Shown: one piece after another, positions 3,370 to 47,246 of the stretch
Numbering within the stretch: position 1 is the first letter of the stretch
How the letters are laid out: each line of letters begins with the position of its first letter
Assembly: GCA_964016885.1 (NCBI GenBank)
Contig: OZ024747.1
Span: 35,526,001 to 35,590,000, forward strand
Direction: 5' to 3'
Source: Eledone cirrhosa
Lineage: Eukaryota
DNA: 64,000 nucleotides
Notes under the pieces: generated by a model
Database searches by the model: none
What the model was told of the DNA's origin: nothing
The model's input: the letters and a program-made list of their open reading frames with translations, nothing else
Translations under genes and position numbers: made by a program

Positions 3370-4358
<989 letters not shown>

Positions 4359-5199
4359 TTCAAGAGTAACCAATCTTAAAGAGAGAGATGGAGATAGTAG
4401 AGGAGATATGAGAGGAGAAATTGGTGAGTTAGTTAGAAGCCAAAGCGTAAAGGCGTGTGCTCAATGTGCAATATGCAGTAGAATGCAGCTAGGTGGCTGG
4501 GTTCATGCAGATGTTAGGTGCGCAGAGCTGGAAATATACATTAGTTAAGAAAAAAAAGACCACAAACTTCACAAGGAAGACATTATATAAAGATTGTCAA
4601 CATATTTTAGTTTGATGTAAGGAATGTAGAGAATAATAATAATAATATTAATAATAATTGTTTCTACTTTATAATATTAATAATATTAATAATAATAATG
4701 TCCGTTTACAATTGTTTCGCTACTCCATATAGTATTTCTGGATCAGATGATTATATACCATAATTGATCTGGTTCAGTTGAAAATAATTAACATATTTAA
4801 AAAACAGAGTGGCTCATCGGAACTTCAAAGGAATATAAATTAAAATAATGGGATGATGTTACATAATATAGTATTCCATATATTGGTTTTTACTATGGTG
4901 TCTTGGCTGCATCAGTTGTCAGCCATAATCAAGCAGTATTCATCTGTCGAGGCTGCATTGTGTGAGATCTGCCTATGGGTAACAATATGGCTGCCAAAGG
5001 CCATATTTACCTTACTAATTAGAGGGTGGTTTCAGGGGAAGTAACTTCTCGAGAGATTAGAAATTTTGAGTGTTTATATTTAAGTGCTAATTTTTAAATG
5101 TTTTAATTGAGAGACAATGTAGGGGAGGTAACTTATAATTATCGAGTAGTTCATAGCAATTTAACTTATTAGCTACAAGTAAAAATGGGGCTACATGAC

Positions 5200-7500
5200 T
5201 AAGTTGGGTCAAAAATTCTATTGGCGAAGGAATTATCCCTTCAATGTTGACAGCTAATGGTTACCTCCGTTCTATCGTTAATCGGTAGAGGTCGTGATAG
5301 AGTTATGTAATATGCTTCCGTAACACAGAGATCACAAGATTTTCTCCGTCCATTGAACGGTTGGGCCCTAGCCACGATATCCCAATTTAGTGACTGTTGA
5401 ACGTTGTTTAATTTAAGGTTTTTAATGAGCCTAGCTAGCGATGTCGAACATCTGTTGCTAGGGTCTCGGAAGGATAAAGAGTGCGCATTATAGCGTACCT
5501 TAAAAGCGTTAGAGGTAGACTCGATATAAGAGCTGGTATTCGAAGCAGTCTCAACCGTGCACCTATAGACTATGTTGGGTGTCAGGCAGTGTCCATTTAA
5601 TGGGCATGCATTGGGGTAACGGCAGTTGAAGTTTCTTCTGCGGTTAGGAGAGTAGGGTTGTTTAACCTCAGCGGTAGGTCCTTGCTAGAAGGATTAGATG
5701 GGGGAGGTGTGCTACTAGAGTAATTATTGGTGTAATGGCGTGGTGTATTTGATAGGGGTGGTGGTACCGCGGTGTGGAAGTTATACTGTCTTAGCTTTTG
5801 ATGGTTACAGAACGCGATGTGGCTAGCTAGGTTAGGTGTTGTGGAGAATGAGATTTTAAAATTATTTTTATTAAAGGGTTTGTAATATCTATGGTTGGGG
5901 GGGGGGGTATTTGGATAGGATACAGAAGAAGCGTTTGGGGATATTAGTGGCTTGATTAGATGAAAATGGGGGGTTGAGCCAGGTGATATTTCTAGTTCTA
6001 TTCCTTCTAGGGGTTTAGGTGGAGTTGGTATGGGCCTTCCTAGGGTTATTATTACCTGGGGATTTGTTATTTGTCATCCCATTTCTCATTCCTATTCTAG
6101 GGTTGATTTTTAGTTTGCTACTTGGAGTGGGGAGCAGGCCGCTGCCACCATTAAAGTTCCCTGTATAGGTGCTGTTACTGCTAAAATTCCGGCGAATCTG
6201 GCTATATGCTAAGGTATTTCTAGGTCTAGTGTTAAGTCTATTATGGTGTGTTGCTGTGTTATGGCATTTAGGTATGTAGGTATGTAATAAATTGATTGTT
6301 TATAACCAGATTCAGAGAGAGCCTTATTATAATATTGTGCGTGGTTTATAAATATCTCCTCATTTGCTGATAGCATTGAGATCCTATAGGAGATAGATTT
6401 GATTACTGCTCTGATGACTGCCAGTGGGTGGTTAGAGTTTGGGCTAATATATGTGAGTATTTCACCTGGTTTATGGTAAGGGTTATACAGGTTATTGTTG
6501 AGATTAAGAGTGACGTCTAGGAAGGTTACTAATTTATGTTTTATCTGATGGTGATAGAGAGACCGTTATTTTTGAAGAATCTATGTAATTTTTTCTTTAG
6601 CAAATCGATTCCCCGAGTAGTGCAATTGTGGACAGCAAAAAGGGCGTTGTCCCTGTATATTCCGCCTTGCATGGGTTGGATTTCGGCTCTGATGTTATGT
6701 AATAGGTAAATCCCAACTAAATCGGTGATTTGCGCGGAGTCACTTGAGCCCATCGTAATGTCAAAGTAGTCTGTTCTATCTTTTCTAGTCCAGAGTGCTC
6801 CGTTGAATTCAATGAAAGTCTGCCTAGCCATAGGTATGATGTTAATCTCATTATTGGTTATGTCCGAGTTAGTGGTGGCTAGGGATAGTGCTTTTTTGAG
6901 CAGTTCCGGGGTTATTGACGCATAATAGCTGTCTATATCAAATTGGATGAACCTCATAGATTTCTTGGAACTTAGATCGGAGAACCATCTGATGACTTAG
7001 CCGGTGTTGGACCACACCTTGTAGGTGGGATCATCCCGTAGCCCGGGGATTATCCTATCAAGGATGTTCTTACTGATGCGGCCCAGGTCAGATGTGGTTG
7101 GGCTTATTAGTCTAATGGATGAGTTCACTATAAAGTTTGGCTTGTGATCCTTGAGAGAGAACCTTGGGGTTGTTGGTACATAAGGGTTAGAAAATCTATC
7201 CAGATGCAAGTCCTTAACCAAAGCGTGGGCTTTTCGGTTAAGTACGTTTACACTGTAGGGTGTAGTTTTTTTATAGTTTTTATTGAGATATTTAAGAAGG
7301 AAAGAGTCGTAAGTTTCAGGAGTCATGGTGTATATATTTTTGGTTTTGTCAGACATAACATGTAAGAGGTTGCTATCTTTAAATTTGTTCATAGTTGTTG
7401 CTAATGTAGTGAGGAAGTTATTCCTTTGTCTATAATGTTTTTTGAACTTAATGCTCCTGACGAAGTTGAATAGATCTTTCTCAAAAGGGTGCAGCAGGAT
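5200..7500 (-). pseudogene. Penelope-like element (Naiad-like) RT plus GIY-YIG pseudogene
   Basis: SDKTKNIY, LKDHK, QFDIDSYYASI, FDITMGSSDSAQITDLVG, GGIYRDN, and C-terminal NCRYPNACPLNGHCL..IVYRC..FKVRYNAH. Frameshifted. Confidence 0.9.
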
Positions 7501-8850: not shown

Positions 8851-9044
8851 TATATATACATATATTTAATACATTAACAGAGAAAGCTTTAAGCAATACT
8901 CCGACCGGCTTCCGTCTCACTCAACAAACATTAGGATATATCACTGTATAATCACAATTATACGTTTGGGGTGCTAACTATACGTATTTTGCGGATAGCC
9001 TGTTGTATTATTTTATATGAGACATAATTAAAATACATCTCTCT

Positions 9045-9168
9045 TTCCAAACGATCGTTTCATTATAAGTTTTCTACAAATTGAGAAAATAATGTCCAGG
9101 TTATGTAGAAGACTACACATAGTCCGTAGGAATATATGTAGGTGGGCACTTATAAATCATCAGTGGAT
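9045..9168 (-). ncRNA. Hammerhead with extended stem II
   Basis: Minus strand: TCCA-CTGATGA-TTTATAAG..CTTATAAT-GAAA-CGATCG-TT-TGGA. Confidence 0.75.
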
Positions 9169-9620
9169 GCCCGACAAATATCGATATGAAAAATACCTTG
9201 CCGATATTAATGTTCAGTGATGGTACCCTTCCGTGCTAGAATGACCGCCAAATTTGAAATTCCAGCAGTCTCACAATGATAAATCTCAGTGCCATCAAGC
9301 GGAAAGGGGAGGTCATCGCAAAACATAAAATAATAAAATAATATGCACGCGAGTCAATTAATTTTTCAATAATTTTAACCATACGTGAAGAACTCAATTG
9401 GATATAAAAAAAAAATATATGCATGTATTATTTATACACGCATATAGGTATTTTCTTAGGCTAAAAACAGAGATAAGATACCGGAAGAACAATCAATATT
9501 TCATACAATGAATAAATACGGAAAGTCATACCTAAAAAGTATCTGGAAATATTCATCCCTGGCCAAATCAAGAGTATAATATTTAATACATTAACAGAGA
9601 AAGCTTTAAGCAATACTCCG

Positions 9621-15630: not shown

Positions 15631-16129
15631 ATATATATGAGAACCCCATATATATATATGAATACAAATAGACAAGGGTTAAAATGTCCTCTTAAGTATT
15701 CTGCTGATTTATCGTTGGTATTTCGACGCATTAAAAACTAGATACCTAAACTCAGTGCGAGCGATAACTCAATCAAGTTATCGGGACAGTGGGAAAACGG
15801 AGGGAAGGAAACAAACACATGGTGGTATGCAACGAAAAGAGAGGAAAAATTGAGACAAGTCAATGAATCATGTGGGCATAAGCCCGACATATCAAATTGA
15901 CGAGGAGAAAAAGACAAGTCCGAGCTGCGAGAAGATTGAGAGAGGACAGAAATTCAAGCAGGTCAGACGGGAGGAAGTGAGAGGGGGGAGAAGCAGAGAG
16001 CGAGTGAGTGAAAGTGGGAGGAAGGACCAGCGGAGAGAGATTTACCAGCAGTAGAAATTGAGGAAGTCAAGTGGTGAAGGAGAGAGAAAGGGTGATAGCA
16101 ATAATGTAACAGAAAATATACGAACCACA

Positions 16130-19023: not shown

Positions 19024-19148
19024 TTCAAAACAATTGTTTCATTATAAGTTTTCTACAAATTCGGAGAATATTTCCAGTTTATGTAGAAGCCTAATATACA
19101 TTCATGTAAGAATATATTTAGGTAGGCGCTTATAAATCATCAGTGGAA
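19024..19148 (-). ncRNA. Hammerhead with extended stem II
   Basis: Minus strand: TTCCA-CTGATGA-TTTATAAG..CTTATAAT-GAAA-CAATTG-TT-TTGAA (one stem I mismatch). Confidence 0.7.
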
Positions 19149-26713: not shown

Positions 26714-26971
26714 GATAAATCTACCAAGAGTTTACGGTAGTGAAAAATCACTTTCGGTGAAAGATAAACGGTATACAGAGTCAATATTGTTGAATATGCA
26801 TGCCAACTCTAACACATATATATCCTAGAAACGATCGTTAAATAATGAACTTTTTTTGTTTAATATAAGGAATTGTTTATTCATTATTTGTTTAATATTT
26901 TATATATATATATATATATATATGTGTGAAGAAAATCCTAGCTATCGGAGTATCGTTCTTTTTATTTACGT

Positions 26972-27073
26972 GTCCCAACGACTTTTTTTAGCCGTTGTTC
27001 GCACCAACCTGAGGTATATGGCCCTTAAAGCGATGAAATGCCTGGGACGGTTGGAGGGTCACTGATGAAGGAC
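26972..27073 (+). ncRNA. Hammerhead ribozyme with non-canonical (scrambled, pseudoknotted) segment order, copy 1
   Basis: GGTA-TA-TGGCCCT..GCGA-T-GAAA-TGCC..AGGGTCA-CTGATGA-A-GGAC. Helices covary with 41308 and 47119. Confidence 0.75.
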
Positions 27074-27154
27074 CCCCCCCCCCCCCTTTTTTATATGTAA
27101 CCCATTTGCAACGCCGCAGCTCCATTATTATCATATATATATATATATATATAT

Positions 27155-29532: not shown

Positions 29533-29585
<53 letters not shown>
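27960..29585. repeat. Compound (TA)/(TG) microsatellite
   Basis: Seen directly. Confidence 0.97.
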
Positions 29586-29667
29586 GTTATTCCGGGTTGA
29601 ATCGGAGGTAACCACAGTAAGTAAGGTACTCAATACATAGCAGAGTATAACAGTTTTAATATAGATG

Positions 29668-29718
29668 AGATTCTACAGGACTAGAACTGTTTCATTCATT
29701 TGAAATCATCAGGAATCT
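29668..29718 (-). ncRNA. Type I hammerhead ribozyme (3' pLTR)
   Basis: Minus strand: AGATTC-CTGATGA-TTTCAAATGAAT-GAAA-CAG TTCTAGTC CTG-TA-GAATCT. Confidence 0.85.
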
Positions 29719-30393
29719 GGGTATCAAAAAATAAATATGGTATTTATAGGTCTCTACAAGTGGTAGGAGAGGGTGGGGAGTGGGATGGGTGCAGGTCATT
29801 GGTTGATAGAAAAGGGAATTCATTAAAAGCTAATTCTACAAAGCTATAGTTTATTTTTATTTTTATTTTTATTTATTTATGTTTTTAGAGTAACAAGGGC
29901 AGACAGAATTCTATAAACAGGTTCCGGATGGCCTACCATTCCTTGTCAATAAGTTTCTCTTAAGCTAACAGATGTCTATAAAATCAGTGGGGGGTCAGTC
30001 ATAGTCGATAGAGTTAAAGAAAAGGGAGATTCTTTAAAAGCTAAAGTCATTAAGGTTCTACTAAGTGACAAAGGTCTAGAGAATTCTGCAGACAGATTCA
30101 AAATACTGAGTGCATATCTTACTATTATCTTCGAACTTCTCTTAAACTAATCAACTATATGCCAAAAATCAACAGACACATTCACAAAAAAACAAAAAAA
30201 ACACATACTCACTCACACACTTACGCGCAACCATAAACACACACACAAACACATATACACTCATAAAAACACACACACATATATATAAAAATATATATAA
30301 ATATATATTCATGTACACACACACGTACATACAGACATACATACACACATACATATATAATACATATATATATATACACACATATATATACAC

Positions 30394-30456
<63 letters not shown>

Positions 30457-30469
30457 TATACACATATAT

Positions 30470-30524
<55 letters not shown>

Positions 30525-30703
30525 TACACACACACACATACACATACATACACACACACGCACATATACATATACACAAATAAATACACTCACACGCATA
30601 CATACAAACACGAATATACATGTATATACACACAAATACACATAGACATATATACATACACAAATATATATATATATATATATATACATACATATATATA
30701 TAT

Positions 30704-30754
<51 letters not shown>

Positions 30755-30931
30755 CATACATATATATATATACACACATACCCACATACATACATACACA
30801 TACATATATACACACACATACGTATACATATATATTTACATATACATATACACATATACATATATATATATATATATACATATATACACATATATACATA
30901 CACACACACACATGCACACACACACACACAC

Positions 30932-31001
<70 letters not shown>

Positions 31002-31138
31002 CCCATACACACACATATATATATACATATACACACACATACACACAAACACACACACACATATATATATACACAAATACATATATATATATATACACTC
31101 ATATATATAACCACATACATATTTACATACATACACAT

Positions 31139-31190
<52 letters not shown>

Positions 31191-31281
31191 AATATATATA
31201 TATATACACACACATAACCAAATATATACACATACATACACACACACACACACATACACATGCATATGTATAAACATCTAT

Positions 31282-31314
<33 letters not shown>

Positions 31315-31319
31315 CACAA

Positions 31320-31393
<74 letters not shown>

Positions 31394-31494
31394 ATATATA
31401 TATTTATACATATACAAATATACACATACATACACACACCTATACATAAATATACACATATATATACAGACATATAACGCATATATACACACAC

Positions 31495-31525
<31 letters not shown>

Positions 31526-31606
31526 CATACACACACATACATACATACACACATACACATACACAGACACATATATATACATATATATACACATATATAC
31601 ACACAT

Positions 31607-31637
<31 letters not shown>

Positions 31638-31656
31638 CACACATACATATACATAT

Positions 31657-31719
<63 letters not shown>

Positions 31720-31972
31720 TACATATATACATATATATATACACATATACACACATATATACACACACACATACATACACATACATATATATATATACAT
31801 ACAAATACACACACACACACTCATATATATATATATATATACACACCTGCCCACACAACTATATACATATATATATACATATATGCTCACACATATATAC
31901 ACACATACATACATATACATATATACATATATATATATATACATACACATATATACATATATATACACATAC

Positions 31973-32003
<31 letters not shown>

Positions 32004-32094
32004 TATACATACACACATACATATACACATACATATACATAAACATACATACATACATACACATACATACATACATACATACATACACATACAT

Positions 32095-32164
<70 letters not shown>

Positions 32165-32504
32165 GCATATACACAAGCATATACATACATATACATACAT
32201 AAATATACACACATAAAACACATATACACACAAACATATATATATACACATATATAAATATATATATATATATACACACACACACATACACATATACACA
32301 CATACAAACAAATATATACACATACAAGTAAATAGGTACTCAATAAATATACGCCTATACGCAGGCACATAAAGACACCTCTACAGGCAGAAAATGTAGA
32401 TACGAAAGAGGTACTCACATAACCATAGTGGCCGTATTTCAGGTTGAGGAGGGGTGGGGGTAGGGTGGGGAGGAGGTATAGGGGCCAATAGGGGGAGGTC
32501 GTTT

Positions 32505-34325
32505 TTAGCCATCGGGCTTTAACACTGGCTTAAAGTGTTTGAATGTTGCAAAGTTCTTGTGCATGCAGTTCGGGCAGTGTTCAGAGAGTTTGTTCAGTAG
32601 CGGGCCCTTGGCGAATAAAATTTCGTAGCTCTCTGAAATACAAAGGTCGCAGCCCTTGTGTCCTCCGTTGTAAGAGCGCGCTTTCTGGAGTATTTTCCAA
32701 TTAAGCGTGAAGGGGGTGGAGTTCCTTTTGAGGTCCCAAACGTAGGAGGCGAGTGTTGTCTGATTTGATTTGTCCGGTCTTCTGAAGGAGTGGGTATGGG
32801 CATACCAACGGGTCTTAAAGTTGTTGGAGGTCATGCCGATGTAAGTTTTTTTGCAATCCTCGGTGCCTGAGATGACATCGCATTTGTATACGATGTCATT
32901 TGTGAGGCATTTGTTTTCAAGTGGGCATGCTTCCTTATTTAGGCAATTACATAGAGCCCCAGTCCGGGGATTGGTTTCGGAGGTGTAATTGTTGGCGGAG
33001 AGGCCAGATATTCTAATAGAGACGCTTTTTACTAGGTTATCAGTGATGTTTTGGGGGTGGTTAGAATTAACATTAATATATTTAAGGGACTCGTTAGGTT
33101 TGTGGTACGGGTAATAGAGGGAAGTATCTAGGTCGAGAGTGACATCTAAGAAGTTGGCCCTAGTCAAATTAGAATCTATACTTATACTAAATCCTAGATT
33201 AGAGAAGAAAGAGCTTAAGTTTTTACGAAACCCATCGGTGGTTCTGGGGCTAACCTTATGCAGGGCGAAGAGGCCGTCGTCTCGGTATAAACCTCCAGTT
33301 AGGCCGGTAAAGAGGTTATTCAGGTTATGTAGGATGTACAGGCCCACAAGGTCGCTAATTTCAGCCGAGTCACTCGCCCCCATGCTAACGTCAAATGGGT
33401 TCTGAGATTTCTTGTTGATCCAGTAAGATCCATCGTGGTATAGAAAGTTCTTACGAGCGTGGAGGATAATAACTTGCTCAGCATCGGTAATGGTGGTAAA
33501 ATTCCTGGCAAAGTTAATTGCGTCCTTCAGGAGGGGCTCCGAGATAGAGGCATAGTAGTTTTCTATGTCAAGTTGCAGGAAGCGAGTGTGGTGTTTATCG
33601 GGTAATTCTTGGAACCATGATATTGCCTCAGATGTTCTACTCCAGAGTGGAAGTGGTGAGGCTGCCCGCAATGATGGTAGAACTCTATCCAGGATCTTCT
33701 TACTGATAGAGCCGATGTCAGAACGAGTGGGGTTGATAAGTCTGACTGATGGTTTGTTGAGGAAATTTCCCTTATGGTCCTTCAGGGTAAAGTGCGGGGT
33801 CTTTACCCTTAAAGGTTCGGTTCGGTCGTGTAATTTAAGGGACTTGGCGATTTCTTTTCCGGCCGCGTTTGTCTCAGTCAGTGCCCTCTCTATTACCTTT
33901 TTGTAGGTGGTCGTGATGGTATTTTTTGCCAGCTTATTGTAGGTCTGTGGGTCTACCTCATAAACTTTTTTGGTTTTATCGGAGGAGACATAAAGATTAG
34001 GGGATTTTTTTATATTCCGTAATTCGGCATTTAAGTAGGCCTGGAATGGTGTGGTGGCTCTACGGAATTTAATATCCTTGATCATCTTGAAGAGGTCTTC
34101 TTCAAATGGTTGGAGTAGGCTGTTGCTGGGTGGTGTCTTATTCGTTTTGAAGCCGAACTTCTCATCATTGGTAGATGCTACATCAGGTTTGTCGAGGAAG
34201 AAGGCCCTCCATCTAATTCGCTTGATGAACTCGTCGGTACGTCTGATGAGTGTTTTTAAGTATAGTTTCCTTGGAGGGATAGGGATGTTCTTCAAGGAAA
34301 TATCAAGGTCGAGTTTGGTCATCAT
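32505..34325 (-). CDS. Penelope-like RT plus GIY-YIG polyprotein, open frame with an internal in-frame deletion
   Basis: [56 protein letters not shown] and CDLCISE. Start is placed at the first ATG; the ORF track extends to a TTG at 34421. Confidence 0.93.
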
Positions 34326-34455
34326 GGTTTCTTGATGATGGTTATAAGGGGCACAGAGAGTGCTAAAATGTACGTTATTCCGGATTGAATCGGAGGTAAC
34401 CACAGTAAGTAAGGTACTCAATACATAGCAGAGTATAACAGTTTTAATATAGATG

Positions 34456-34506
34456 AGATTCTACAGGACTAGAACTGTTTCATTCATTTGAAATCATCAG
34501 GAATCT
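34456..34506 (-). ncRNA. Type I hammerhead ribozyme (5' pLTR)
   Basis: Identical to 29668-29718 and located just upstream of the ORF. Confidence 0.85.
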
Positions 34507-34742
34507 GGGTATCAAAAAATAAATATGGTATTTATAGGTCTCTACAAGTGGTAGGAGAGGGTGGGGAGTGGGATGGGTGCAGGTCATTGGTTGATAGAAA
34601 AGGGAATTCATTAAAAGCTAATTCTACAAAGCTATATATGTGTATATATATATGTATTTATATATGTGTATATATATATGTTTGTGTGTATATGTGTGTT
34701 TATATTTATGTATGTATATGTATGTATATGCTTGTGTATATG

Positions 34743-37661: not shown

Positions 37662-39924
37662 GTGTATATATATGTGTATATATATATATGTATTATATAC
37701 GTATGTGTGTATGTATGTCTGTATGTACGTGTCTGTACATGAATATATATTTATATATATTTTTATATATATGTGTGTGTGTTTTTATGAGTGTATATGT
37801 GTTTGTGTGTGTGTTTATGGTTGCGCGTAAGTGTGTGAGTGAGTATGTGTTTTTTTGTTTTTTTGTGAATGTGTCTGTTGATTTTTGGCATATAGTTGAT
37901 TAGTTTAAGAGAAGTTCGAAGATAATAGTAAGATATGCACTCAGTATTTTGAATCTGTCTGCAGAATTCTCTAGACCTTTGTCACTTATTAGAACCTTAA
38001 TGACTTTAGCTTTTAAAGAATCTCCCTTTTCTTTAACTCTATCGACTATGACTGACCCCCCACTGATTTTATAGACATCTGTTAGCTTAAGAGAAACTTA
38101 TTGACAAGGAATGGTAGGCCATCCGGAACCTGTTTATAGAATTCTGTCTGCCCTTGTTACTCTAAAAACATAAATAAATAAAAATAAAAATAAAAATAAA
38201 CTATAGCTTTGTAGAATTAGCTTTTAATGAATTCCCTTTTCTATCAACCAATGACCTGCACCCATCCCACTCCCCACCCTCTCCTACCACTTGTAGAGAC
38301 CTATAAATACCATATTTATTTTTTGATACCCAGATTCCTGATGATTTCAAATGAATGAAACAGTTCTAGTCCTCTAGAATCTCATCTATATTAAAACTAT
38401 ATATATATATATATATATGTGTGTATATGTATGTATATAAATATATTTATATATGTGTGTGTGTTTTTATGAGTGTATATGTGTATGTGTATGTGTGTTA
38501 ATGGTTGCGCCCGAGTGTGTGAGTGAGTGTGTTTTTTTGTGAATGTGTCTGTTGATTTTTGGCATATAGTTGATTAATTTAAGAGAAGTTCGAAGATATT
38601 TGCAAGATATGCACTCAGTATTTTGAATCTGTCTACAGAATTCTCTACACCTTTGTCACTTAGTAGAACCTTAATGAATTTAACTTTTAAAGAATCTCCC
38701 TTTCCTTTAATTCTATCTACCATGACTGACCCCCCACTGATCTTATAGACATCTGTTAGCTTAAGAGAAACTTAATGACAAGGAATGGTATGCCATCCGG
38801 AACCTGTTTATAGAATTCTGTCTGCCTTTGTTACTCTAAAAACAAAAATTAATAAAAATAAACTATAGCTTTGTAGAATTACCTTTTAATGAATTCCCTT
38901 TTCTATCAACCAATGACCTACACCCATCCCACTCCCCACCCTCTCCTACCACTTGTAGAGACCTATAAATACCATGTTTACTTTTTGATACCCAGATTCC
39001 TGATGATTTCTAAAGAATGAAACAGTTCTAGTCCTGTAGAACCTCATCTATATTAAAACTTTTATACTCTGCAATGTATTGAGTACCTTACTTACTGTGG
39101 TTACCTCCGAATCAACCCGGAATAACGTACTTATATATATACATATATACATACACACACATACACATTTACAAGCAAACACCCATACATACACATACAT
39201 ACATACAAATAAGTACACATAAACGCATATGCACAAACACGCACTCGTTCACACTCATACATGTGTCTATAGTATAAAGGTAGTGGGACACATTTTAATT
39301 TTAAATTTTAAACTGGGCCTGATAGAGGATAAAATAATTAATGTCACTATTAAGTTATTAATATTATCATCAAGTAATTAATTACTATTTATTATTCATT
39401 ACTTACTATTTACCATTCACTATTCGTTACCTATCTTTTATCCCTTATCTATTCATTACCTAATCATTCACTCATAAATGGATAAATAAATGAATGAGTT
39501 AACTAACAAACAAACAAACAAACAAACAGATGAACAAATAAACCAGTAAATAAGTAAATAAATAAACAGATAAACAAATAAACCAGTAAATAAGTAAATA
39601 AATAAACAAATAAATAAATAAATGGATAAAAAAATAAATAAGTAAATAAAGTAACTAAATAAATAAATAAATAAATAAATAAATATACAGTTAAATAGAT
39701 AAATAAATCATGGACGTGTGCGTGCAGCAGTTCATAACTGTGCGTATGAAAACATGAGCAGGTATATACGTGTATTTGTGTGTGCGGCCACGGAACTTTA
39801 CTCAGAGGCATACAACACAATATATAAGACCTGGAGGGGAGGAAAGAGGGTAATAATGAGAGATAGAGGGGAGGAAAGAGGGTAATAATGAGAGATGGAG
39901 GGACGGAAATGGGATGGGGGGGGG

Positions 39925-40590
39925 TCAGTCGGGGGGCCGGGGGGGTCTGTAGTTTTTGTAATTTGCATAGTTCTTGTGCATGCAATTAGGGGAGTGTTCC
40001 GAGATCTTGTTGAGGAGAGGGCCTTTGGCGAATAGAATCTCATAGCTCTCGGAGATACAGAGGTCACAGCAATTATGGCCTCCCGTGTATGATCGCGCTC
40101 TCTGGAGTAGTCTCCATTGGGTCTTGAAGGGGAAGGAGCTCATTTTAGGTGCCAGATGTGGGCGGCGAGTGTAGTTTGGTTAGATTTGTCTGGGCGCCGG
40201 AACGAATGTGTGTGGGCGTACCAGCGAGTCTTAAAACTATTAGAAGTCATCTCGATGTACGAGTTTCTTTTTTCATTTTTCATCGGGGCCTGAGAATACA
40301 TCGCATATATACACGAGATCTTTTTTTAGACAGTTGTTGTTGAGAGGGCAGGTCGTCTTATCAGGGCAATTGCAGTTGCTATCGGTTGCTGGATGGGCTT
40401 CGGAAAAAGTAGACTTATTTAGCTTCTTGATGTTGTTGTTGGCTAAGTTTCTAGCTAGATTAGGTGTGGTAGAGTAAGAGAGTCTAATGGTATTCTTATT
40501 AAGGATAGTATAGTACCTATGTTGGGTGGGGAAGTGTTTTTGTAAGAGAGTGAAGAACATCTCTCTTACAAAAACCCACTTCCCCACTTG
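39925..40590 (-). pseudogene. Naiad-like linker plus GIY-YIG fragment
   Basis: VGKWVF..LSYSTTPNL..CNCPDKTTCPLNNNCL..CDLCISE..CMH. Frameshifted. Confidence 0.9.
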
Positions 40591-40827: not shown

Positions 40828-40850
40828 ATGTGTATATATATATATTTCAT

Positions 40851-41461
40851 GCAATGAAATATCTATGATCGTCGGCAAATAACTGATGAGGGACTTATTT
40901 TATTACATGTTATCCATGTGCTACTAGCAGTATTTTTCTCCCCATTTTATCACATATATTTACCTAAACTGCGATTCTGTTTTTTTCTCTCACTCTCTCT
41001 CTTACTGCTCCCTCATTATCTCTGTTTCTCCTACTTTCTTTCACCCCCTCTGTCATATCAGTTAACTCATCCTCACACTTCCACTCACTCACTCAGTGTT
41101 TCTCCTCTCCTCACTTCACCCCGTTCGCAACGAAAGCAATTTCTCTCTTTCTTACATTGCATTCGTTCGCGAAAGGTCTTTTTTCTAAACGCTCATATAT
41201 TCACCTAGTTTATGCTAACAGAATAACTATGAAGCTTGTTTCCTTCCTCTACGGTTAGCTCTACTCTTTGTTGTTTTCTTGTCTCAGTCGCTTTACGCGT
41301 TTTAGTTGTCCTAATAACTTAATTTAGTTATTATTGCACCGACGTGAGGTATATGATTGTTAGGCAATGAAATATCTATGATCGTCGGCAAATCACTGAT
41401 GAGGGACTTATTTTATTACATGTTATCCATGTGCTACCAGCAGTATTTTTCTCCCCATTTT

Positions 41462-41465
<4 letters not shown>
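40851..41465 (+). mobile_element. Tandem non-coding unit (513 bp) carrying the scrambled HHR
   Basis: 40851-40952 is repeated at 41364-41465. Confidence 0.75.
41308..41407 (+). ncRNA. Scrambled-order hammerhead, copy 2
   Basis: GTCC..TTGC-A-CCGACG-TGA-GGTA-TA-TGATTG-TTAG-GCAA-T-GAAA-TATC-TAT-GA-T-CGTCGG-CAAATCA-CTGATGA-G-GGAC. Confidence 0.72.
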
Positions 41466-46816: not shown

Positions 46817-47118
46817 TTGTACCACTTGCTTTCATTCATCCCTCTGCTTGTCACACTCTCTCGGCTCGCTTCTTCCTCACACATTCGCTCACTGACTCTC
46901 TGCAGCTCCTCCTCTCTCACCTCCCCCCGTCAGTCCTGTGTGAAATCCTTTTGTTGCTCACATTTCACAGAGTTTGGACGCTTCTGCCGCTTTCTCATCG
47001 TTGATTTGGTCGAACTTAAGTTCACATATATCGTTGACTTGTCCCTCATTTCCTCTCTTTACGTTGCCTTACTATTTTCGTTTGTTTACTATCCCTCTTT
47101 CTCCACCCAATTCACTCT

Positions 47119-47221
47119 GTCCCAATAACTTATTTTAGTCATTGCTCGCACTGATTTTGAGGAATCTGGTCTTTAATGCGAAGAAATATCGATGATAGTC
47201 AGAAGATCACTCATGATGGAC
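47119..47221 (+). ncRNA. Scrambled-order hammerhead, copy 3 (core mutated to CTCATGA)
   Basis: GTCC..TCGC-A-CTGATT-TTGA-GGAA-TC-TGGTCTT-TAAT-GCGA-A-GAAA-TATC-GAT-GA-T-AGTCAG-AAGATCA-CTCATGA-T-GGAC. Confidence 0.68.
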
Positions 47222-47246
47222 AGTTCTGTTTCTCGCTCTATTTTAA

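Follow-up and report, generated by a model that had tools for sequence, protein, structure and literature searches.

The 64,000-nucleotide stretch of Eledone cirrhosa DNA analyzed here, in the following referred to as the window, contains a short non-coding insertion that probably represents a non-autonomous, retrozyme-like PLE family. Its units combine a type-SGC hammerhead ribozyme with a 3' tail of the kind that ends Naiad PLEs, and reverse transcriptase (RT) would be supplied in trans. The fold is supported by covariation among genomic copies. Throughout the sampled part of the host genome (3.0 Gb, microsatellite-rich, 1796 contigs), the family consists of tandem non-coding units whose 3' ends are fixed at (AT)n and which show 5' truncations and inversions. 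Among the observations that count against this explanation, stem II comprises a single pair, unlike in validated SGC ribozymes, and the host genome, as far as searched, is without a coding element bearing an SGC ribozyme.

A complete permuted hammerhead in a partially repeated unit

An initial annotation of the locus, made from the sequence alone, had described a full scrambled hammerhead at 41308-41407, the 3' half of which recurs 513 bp upstream in a unit that lacks an ORF. Closer analysis bears this out. All core bases are found, and the blocks stand in the order S-G-C, i.e., the hammerhead is of type SGC (Eckert 2023). Positions 40851-40952 and 41364-41465 are 98% identical over 102 nt, and the doubled unit contains no ATG-started frame of more than 30 codons. 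A stop-free frame of 116 aa in the window unit did not match any entry in Pfam. The features of the locus and of related elements in the window are compiled in Table 1.

The window locus holds only about 1.2 units and one complete motif. The 5' partial repeat is devoid of block S and of helices a, h, b and c, and its stem I carries one change. The window copy is 96% like its family, for which pairwise identity amounts to 98.3%. In its full motif, an altered linker (41359-41363) permits a competing hairpin in the minimum-energy fold. Because the changed linker favours this hairpin, the window copy may be a poor cleaver. At gathering scores, Rfam yielded no matches in the window and missed its type I hammerheads as well. 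To the left of the insertion, and separated from it by (TA)n, a PLE fragment resides on the opposite strand (39951-40561).

Table 1 Features of the insertion and of related elements in the window
Position	Strand	Feature	Details
26969..27140	+	3' end of a copy from another subfamily	same ribozyme with compensatory changes
29580-34667	-	young Penelope-type PLE: pLTR-ORF-long microsatellite-rich 3' UTR-pLTR	minimal type I hammerheads, cuts near 34462 and 29674
37710-39060	+	tandem units of ~662-674 bp from the pLTR of the young PLE	type I core in each (38338, 39000); classical retrozyme-like derivative
40849..41465	+	whole insertion, ~1.2 x 513-bp non-coding unit	5'-truncated, flanked by (TA)n tracts
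40849..40952	+	5' partial repeat, pLTR-like	blocks G and C and 3' tail of the preceding unit
40953..41307	+	pyrimidine-rich body, no ORF	family units 67% C+T on the + strand
41308..41337	+	upstream arm in place of most of stem II	a 41308-41311 (with 41404-41407), hairpin h 41312-41333, b 41334-41337 (with 41364-41367)
41339..41344	+	helix c, 5' strand	partner 41383-41388; 5/6 pairs with two-sided change
41348..41358	+	block S	stem III 3' strand, AUA triplet, predicted cut 41353/41354, stem I 5' strand
41364..41376	+	block G	b', N11.1 (41368), GAAA (41369-41372), stem III 5' strand
41391..41407	+	block C	stem I 3' strand, CUGAUGA (41396-41402), N10.1 (41403), a'
41408..41465	+	3' tail to the fixed 3' end of the family, then (TA)n	putative RT start site
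47116..47224	+	third-subfamily ribozyme (U10.1-A11.1)	core damaged in this copy

Architecture and covariation of the ribozyme

A descriptor for the S-G-C order recognized two sites in the window, with cuts at 41353 and 27018, as opposed to none in 20 two-strand shuffles, and was positive in 60 of 75 genomic loci. A pattern scan of metagenomes gave 44 matches; none of these (0/44) exhibits SGC pairing, and they are taken as chance.

For covariation analysis, 36 of 46 distinct full motifs were aligned to a pseudoknotted model of 33 pairs. Pairing is maintained in 96.3% of the cells, compared with 90.1% in shuffles and 24-45% when partners are slid, and 15 of the 33 pairs show two-sided change; note that the 36 rows represent about 8-10 related subfamilies, such that the number of independent changes is lower than the cell counts imply. 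Stem I is paired in 99.4% and stem III in 97.2% of cases, each with two-sided change in two of five pairs, and four of the seven pairs of hairpin h have changed on both sides. The positions of the core and of a' were fixed by the pattern with which most of the aligned motifs had been retrieved; core and stems are kept in nine of the 11 copies that were retrieved by DNA search rather than by pattern. The cleavage triplet is AUA in 36, AUC in eight and different in two of the 46 motifs.

Block order, an intact core (CUGANGA/GAAA/UH) and covarying stems I and III are thus as in type SGC. A helical stem II is not formed. Between blocks G and C it consists of one covarying pair (U-A in 20, U-G in 11 and A-U in four copies, one mismatch; n = 36), and the flanking strands pair upstream: the strand 3' of this pair with one tetramer (helix a) and the strand 5' of GAAA with another (helix b), hairpin h being placed between the two. 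Helix c prolongs stem III. Judged against the figure legend in PMC10085705, a helix connecting stems I and II at their far sides was not seen in that form in our motif, and helices b and c may stand in for it.

A high-copy family with the insertion pattern of PLEs

A pattern for blocks G and C gave 8251 + 8472 = 16,723 matches in the genome and nine in the control. Inspection by eye assigned about 15 of the 100 matches listed to the type found in the window, in agreement with 2213 first-look candidates. Loci were sampled from the matches listed, in the first 42 Mb of contig C1 (75 loci, one duplicate omitted), and 85 of 88 elements were retained at an identity of at least 80%. Tandem arrangement, for which the initial annotation had asked the genome to be searched, was apparent from 23 tandem periods of 497-706 bp. 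They fall into seven clusters, i.e., at least seven subfamilies that are 69-91% alike, and what repeats is the unit itself.

The retained elements end at a limited set of positions. The tail following the motif measures 6-13 nt in 22, 27-39 nt in three and 50-72 nt in 51 of them; one has another length and eight have no end within 200 nt (n = 85). Their 5' ends vary. At least 0.8 unit is present in 27/85 elements and at least 1.5 units in 4/85; the largest array comprises about four units (L023). An inverted copy lies directly upstream in 12 of the 85 elements, and TA-like sequence flanks 46 of 86 5' ends. The insertion features described for PLEs and Naiads (PMC8557442) are present, namely 5' truncation, partial tandems (pLTR), inverted 5' copies and (TA)n sites. 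Together with the number of matches, the fixed 3' and variable 5' ends support PLE-type insertion, as implied by the mobilization by PLE RT that the annotation had suggested. Spreading of a satellite-like repeat through recombination of DNA within microsatellites, the resemblance to a ribozyme being a relic, might be considered given that the copies are located in unstable (TA)n tracts and that one segmental duplicate was encountered (L021/L022). Such a repeat would hardly account for the fixed 3' and variable 5' ends, the inversions, the predominance of copies with fewer than two units and the compensatory changes, and we regard this origin as scarcely credible.

No ORF is attached in any of the 88 sampled elements. 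Within this sample, this speaks against the possibility, named in the annotation, that the unit is always the pLTR of a coding PLE. A PLE protein match occurred in three of 20 long loci and was in no case continuous with a unit; for loci beyond these 20, coding attachment was judged from the mapped 5' ends. When eight open-ended copies were extended, further units followed in seven, the eighth broke off inside a unit, and an ORF was reached in none. An ORF with N-terminal GIY-YIG and C-terminal RT, as in PLEs and Naiads, is thus neither contained in the units nor continuous with them. Non-LTR retrozymes are resembled insofar as each tandem non-coding unit has its hammerhead, which is however not of type I. 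Two spacings of 2.9 kb were evaluated as coding PLEs and rejected; they stem from a duplicated segment that carries unrelated insertions.

The window also contains copies from additional SGC subfamilies, which are older and damaged, at 15682-16075 (-) and 46821-47225 (+). At L141 (G000:C1:78379814-78379909), two head-to-head copies both start from the same TA, 7 nt past the cut, and are separated by a (TA)n spacer.

The same fold, as judged by eye, at the ends of some published Naiad elements

Naiad PLEs have been described as lacking a canonical hammerhead, with eight of them labelled 'half core', and as preferring (TA)n; cephalopod Naiads are considered long inactive (accessible text of PMC8557442). 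We inspected 21 of the 54 published Naiad consensus 3' ends by eye, mostly the last 400-600 nt, with names assigned by file order. The S-G-C order together with the a-h-b arms was recognized in five (Obim, Ovul, Esco, Amil and 2_Movir). Helix c is visible in four of these and absent in Amil. Positions 10.1 and 11.1 of the SGC Naiads seem, by eye, to be paired within a and b and not to each other. Four further 3' ends (Hcon, Hpol, Smim and 3_Nbra) show the order C-S-G by the same inspection, and SGC and CSG differ only by rotation within a single cyclic order. In the remaining 12, neither order was seen within the part inspected. The two octopus Naiads place the motif about 120 nt before an (AT)n 3' end, as does the unit, and share hairpin loop and bulge letters with it, again by eye.

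The annotation had assumed that the unusual ribozyme defines a retrozyme family of its own. This needs correction, as by eye the same fold is seen at the ends of published coding Naiad PLEs. For the same reason, the unit is most plausibly a non-autonomous element derived from a 3' end of the Naiad type, and a Naiad origin of the ribozyme family appears probable from the sequences compared.

In the host genome, Naiads are represented by decayed remnants. Naiad-like RT sequences are 69-88% alike at the DNA level (55 matches), and protein searches returned 115 and 56 stop-riddled Naiad-like matches (150/165 and 54/3519 candidates scored). The exact coding pattern MG.NC.P had no match. The pattern YDFSTLYT had three, the same number as in the control, and all three translate as decayed Naiad-like RT. 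A profile of the unit-type motif (A1) applied to 33 Naiad loci found nothing at their shared 3' ends; its one strong match, in L172, is taken as a separate insertion. Of two patterns derived from octopus Naiad ribozymes, one gave no match in the genome and the other two unrelated-looking ones. Decayed Naiad 3' ends with a doubtful S-G-C candidate and a deviant core were noted at L161, L165, L169, L177 and L182.

These data bear on a further explanation, according to which a young coding Naiad is still present but has escaped detection, the units being its pLTRs or 3' fragments. The SGC fold at the ends of coding Naiads in other animals (by eye) would fit, and just the fractions of candidates given above were scored in the protein searches. 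On the other hand, the top-scoring Naiad matches are stop-riddled and 72-80% alike, while an intact copy should rank first; the repeat period equals the unit, and no ORF continues from a unit in the 88 elements and eight extensions. We therefore deem surviving coding parents quite improbable and retain the assignment to a non-autonomous family.

In metagenomic data, Naiad-like elements occur in a bacterial MAG (L252, L254-L257), where they probably represent host DNA. Their common 3' UTR looks strongly base-paired and has no hammerhead core, and a permuted hammerhead was detected in none of seven 3' ends of Naiad-like MAG loci. No Naiad protein was found in viral contigs.

A candidate source of reverse transcriptase

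Since the Naiads found in the host genome are decayed, the RT is probably not of Naiad origin and would stem from a young PLE also sited in (TA)n. The Penelope-type PLE in the window is a candidate donor by age and target. Its region 32505-34460 (minus strand) gave 40 scored matches at 98-100%, and it likewise resides in (TA)n. The family members are 98-99% alike; RT frames of 651-783 codons were present in 12/12 of its loci and a type I hammerhead in 9/12, while the SGC motif was found in 0/12.

Several other elements were noted in this context. A type I hammerhead located by eye in the pLTR region of another PLE (9000-9320, minus strand; cores also at 19143 and 20124, minus strand) carries an insertion of about 70 nt in stem II, and its stem III is palindromic. 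A 534-bp tandem pair at 47887-49053 matches a descriptor for the type I order with long insertions (cuts 48326 and 48860). L251 contains a 5'-truncated Neptune-type PLE in (TA)n (4030-6040, minus strand) with an open frame of 670 codons; neither a hammerhead core nor an SGC motif was found nearby.

Position of element ends relative to the predicted cut, and proposed mechanism

The annotation had noted that the insertion begins about 10 nt past the predicted cut. This is true for the window copy, whose 5' end (40849-40851) is found 9-11 nt past the position 40840 where the upstream half-copy would be cut. As a rule for the family it had to be rejected, because 5' ends are spread over the entire unit. 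Within -17..+18 of a cut, 13/86 5' ends were counted versus about five expected if uniform, with a p value of 0.002 that is inflated by length decay and by TA microhomology at +7. Head-to-head inversions near the ribozyme (15, all from the exact pattern) have 11/30 arm ends at most 1 nt from the predicted cut (null 0.157, p 0.004). Counted per place, an arm lies at the cut in 8/15 inversions (p 0.047), most junctions being blurred by short microhomologies. In one inversion, both arms stop exactly at the predicted cut, with 14 other bases between them. Taken together, these figures provide weak-to-moderate, indirect indications that RNA ends exist at the predicted cut site. Note that a circle joined at the AUA site and tandem DNA share the same junction sequence.

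We propose that transcripts through tandem units would be cut after the AUA or AUC triplet. The cut-to-cut monomer would begin with blocks G and C on the 5' side and finish with a, h, b, c and the strand of stem III on the 3' side, such that helices a, b, c and III would clamp both ends in the active site. As about 19 bp would hold the monomer ends, ligation to a circle should be favoured; in type I retrozymes, by contrast, the ends are held by stem I alone and thus by fewer base pairs. This end-clamping geometry predicts efficient ligation. A PLE RT-endonuclease acting in trans would nick (TA)n, and reverse transcription would begin internally, about 60-125 nt past the cut, at one of the two tail sites. 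It would proceed backwards across the cut site and stop at variable positions, leaving 0.1 to about four units. Internal RT start and AT-rich targets have been described for a Poseidon PLE in vitro (accessible text of PMC11167929).

According to the same text, insertion by this PLE in vitro did not need hammerhead cleavage and unprocessed RNA was the main substrate, which is why uncleaved tandem RNA remains a rival template. The element would be the same but form no circle, the fold would mainly offer the PLE protein a handle, and copies with several units would arise from uncleaved read-through of tandem sources or from template jumps. The cut site is intact and crossed by more than 17 nt in 77/85 elements, as expected from uncleaved RNA too, and the minimal stem II points in the same direction. 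This model is opposed by a catalytic core and triplet that are kept across the diverged subfamilies and, by eye, in published Naiads, and by the modest pile-up of inversion arms and 5' ends at the predicted cut. We consider it rather unlikely, and continue to favour a retrozyme-like element whose RNA is processed.

Relation to known systems and implications

The unit is a variant of two known kinds, the SGC hammerhead and the non-LTR retrozyme, and a real feature of the genome; it is not a canonical member of either, because it has neither the helical stem II of the former nor the type I hammerhead of the latter. Type-SGC hammerheads (HRIMA-1 and variants) comprise 583 sequences, all from metatranscriptomes and none from genomes of known organisms (PMC10085705). 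They agree with our motif in block order, full core, stems I and III and a short linker that connects stem I with block G. In contrast to them, our motif is chromosomal and present at more than 16,000 places, its stem II is one pair supplemented by a, h and b, for which sequence 5' of block S is used, stem III is lengthened by helix c, and the linker measures 5-6 nt as opposed to typically 3.

Animal retrozymes are described as carrying type I hammerheads and as derived from pLTRs (accessible text of PMC7229834 and bioRxiv 10.64898/2026.07.22.740005). Like the unit, they are low-GC, PLE-linked tandems of non-coding sequence with one hammerhead each. They differ in hammerhead type and size (type I, about 150-450 bp, searched with type I models, versus SGC and 497-706 bp); furthermore, copies of our unit are mostly dispersed partial tandems in (TA)n, with a predicted circular RNA. 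With Naiad PLEs, as far as described in the accessible text of PMC8557442, the unit shares (TA)n preference, 5' truncation and partial tandem and inverted copies. It differs in being without an EN-RT ORF, in a body that is unrelated as far as seen, and in its youth (98%) as compared with the decayed Naiads of the host. Chlamys elements such as MRC1 from green algae are likewise non-coding PLE dependants with pLTRs, head-to-tail arrangement and 3' ends in common with coding families; in contrast to the unit, no permuted hammerhead is reported for MRC1-type elements in the accessible text of PMC8557442. PMC13725137, in its accessible part, merely cites hammerhead permutations. A literature search, with subscription papers largely outside it, revealed no paper that describes SGC hammerheads from an animal genome, nor any that reports permuted hammerheads for Naiads.

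A more far-reaching scenario seems to us about as probable as its opposite. SGC and CSG hammerheads would be native to a large part of the Naiad clade (cnidarians, molluscs, nematodes and spiders). In the genome analyzed, one SGC form, its stem II remodelled into a junction of several helices by which the cut ends are clamped, would have persisted beyond its Naiad parent. It would now be a circular-RNA parasite with more than 16,000 copies and use the enzyme of another PLE.

Within the literature searched, the replacement of stem II constitutes a hammerhead architecture without precedent. The S-G-C order, previously described only from environmental RNA, is encountered here in a young, high-copy non-coding element and, by eye, at the ends of related coding elements. 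Non-circularly permuted hammerheads thereby gain a chromosomal home in an animal, together with thousands of natural variants. The apparent lack of hammerheads in Naiads would find its explanation in searches that used descriptors for the circular order, with 'half cores' resolving as SGC or CSG. By the same token, retrozyme screens limited to type I would overlook whole families of the SGC kind.
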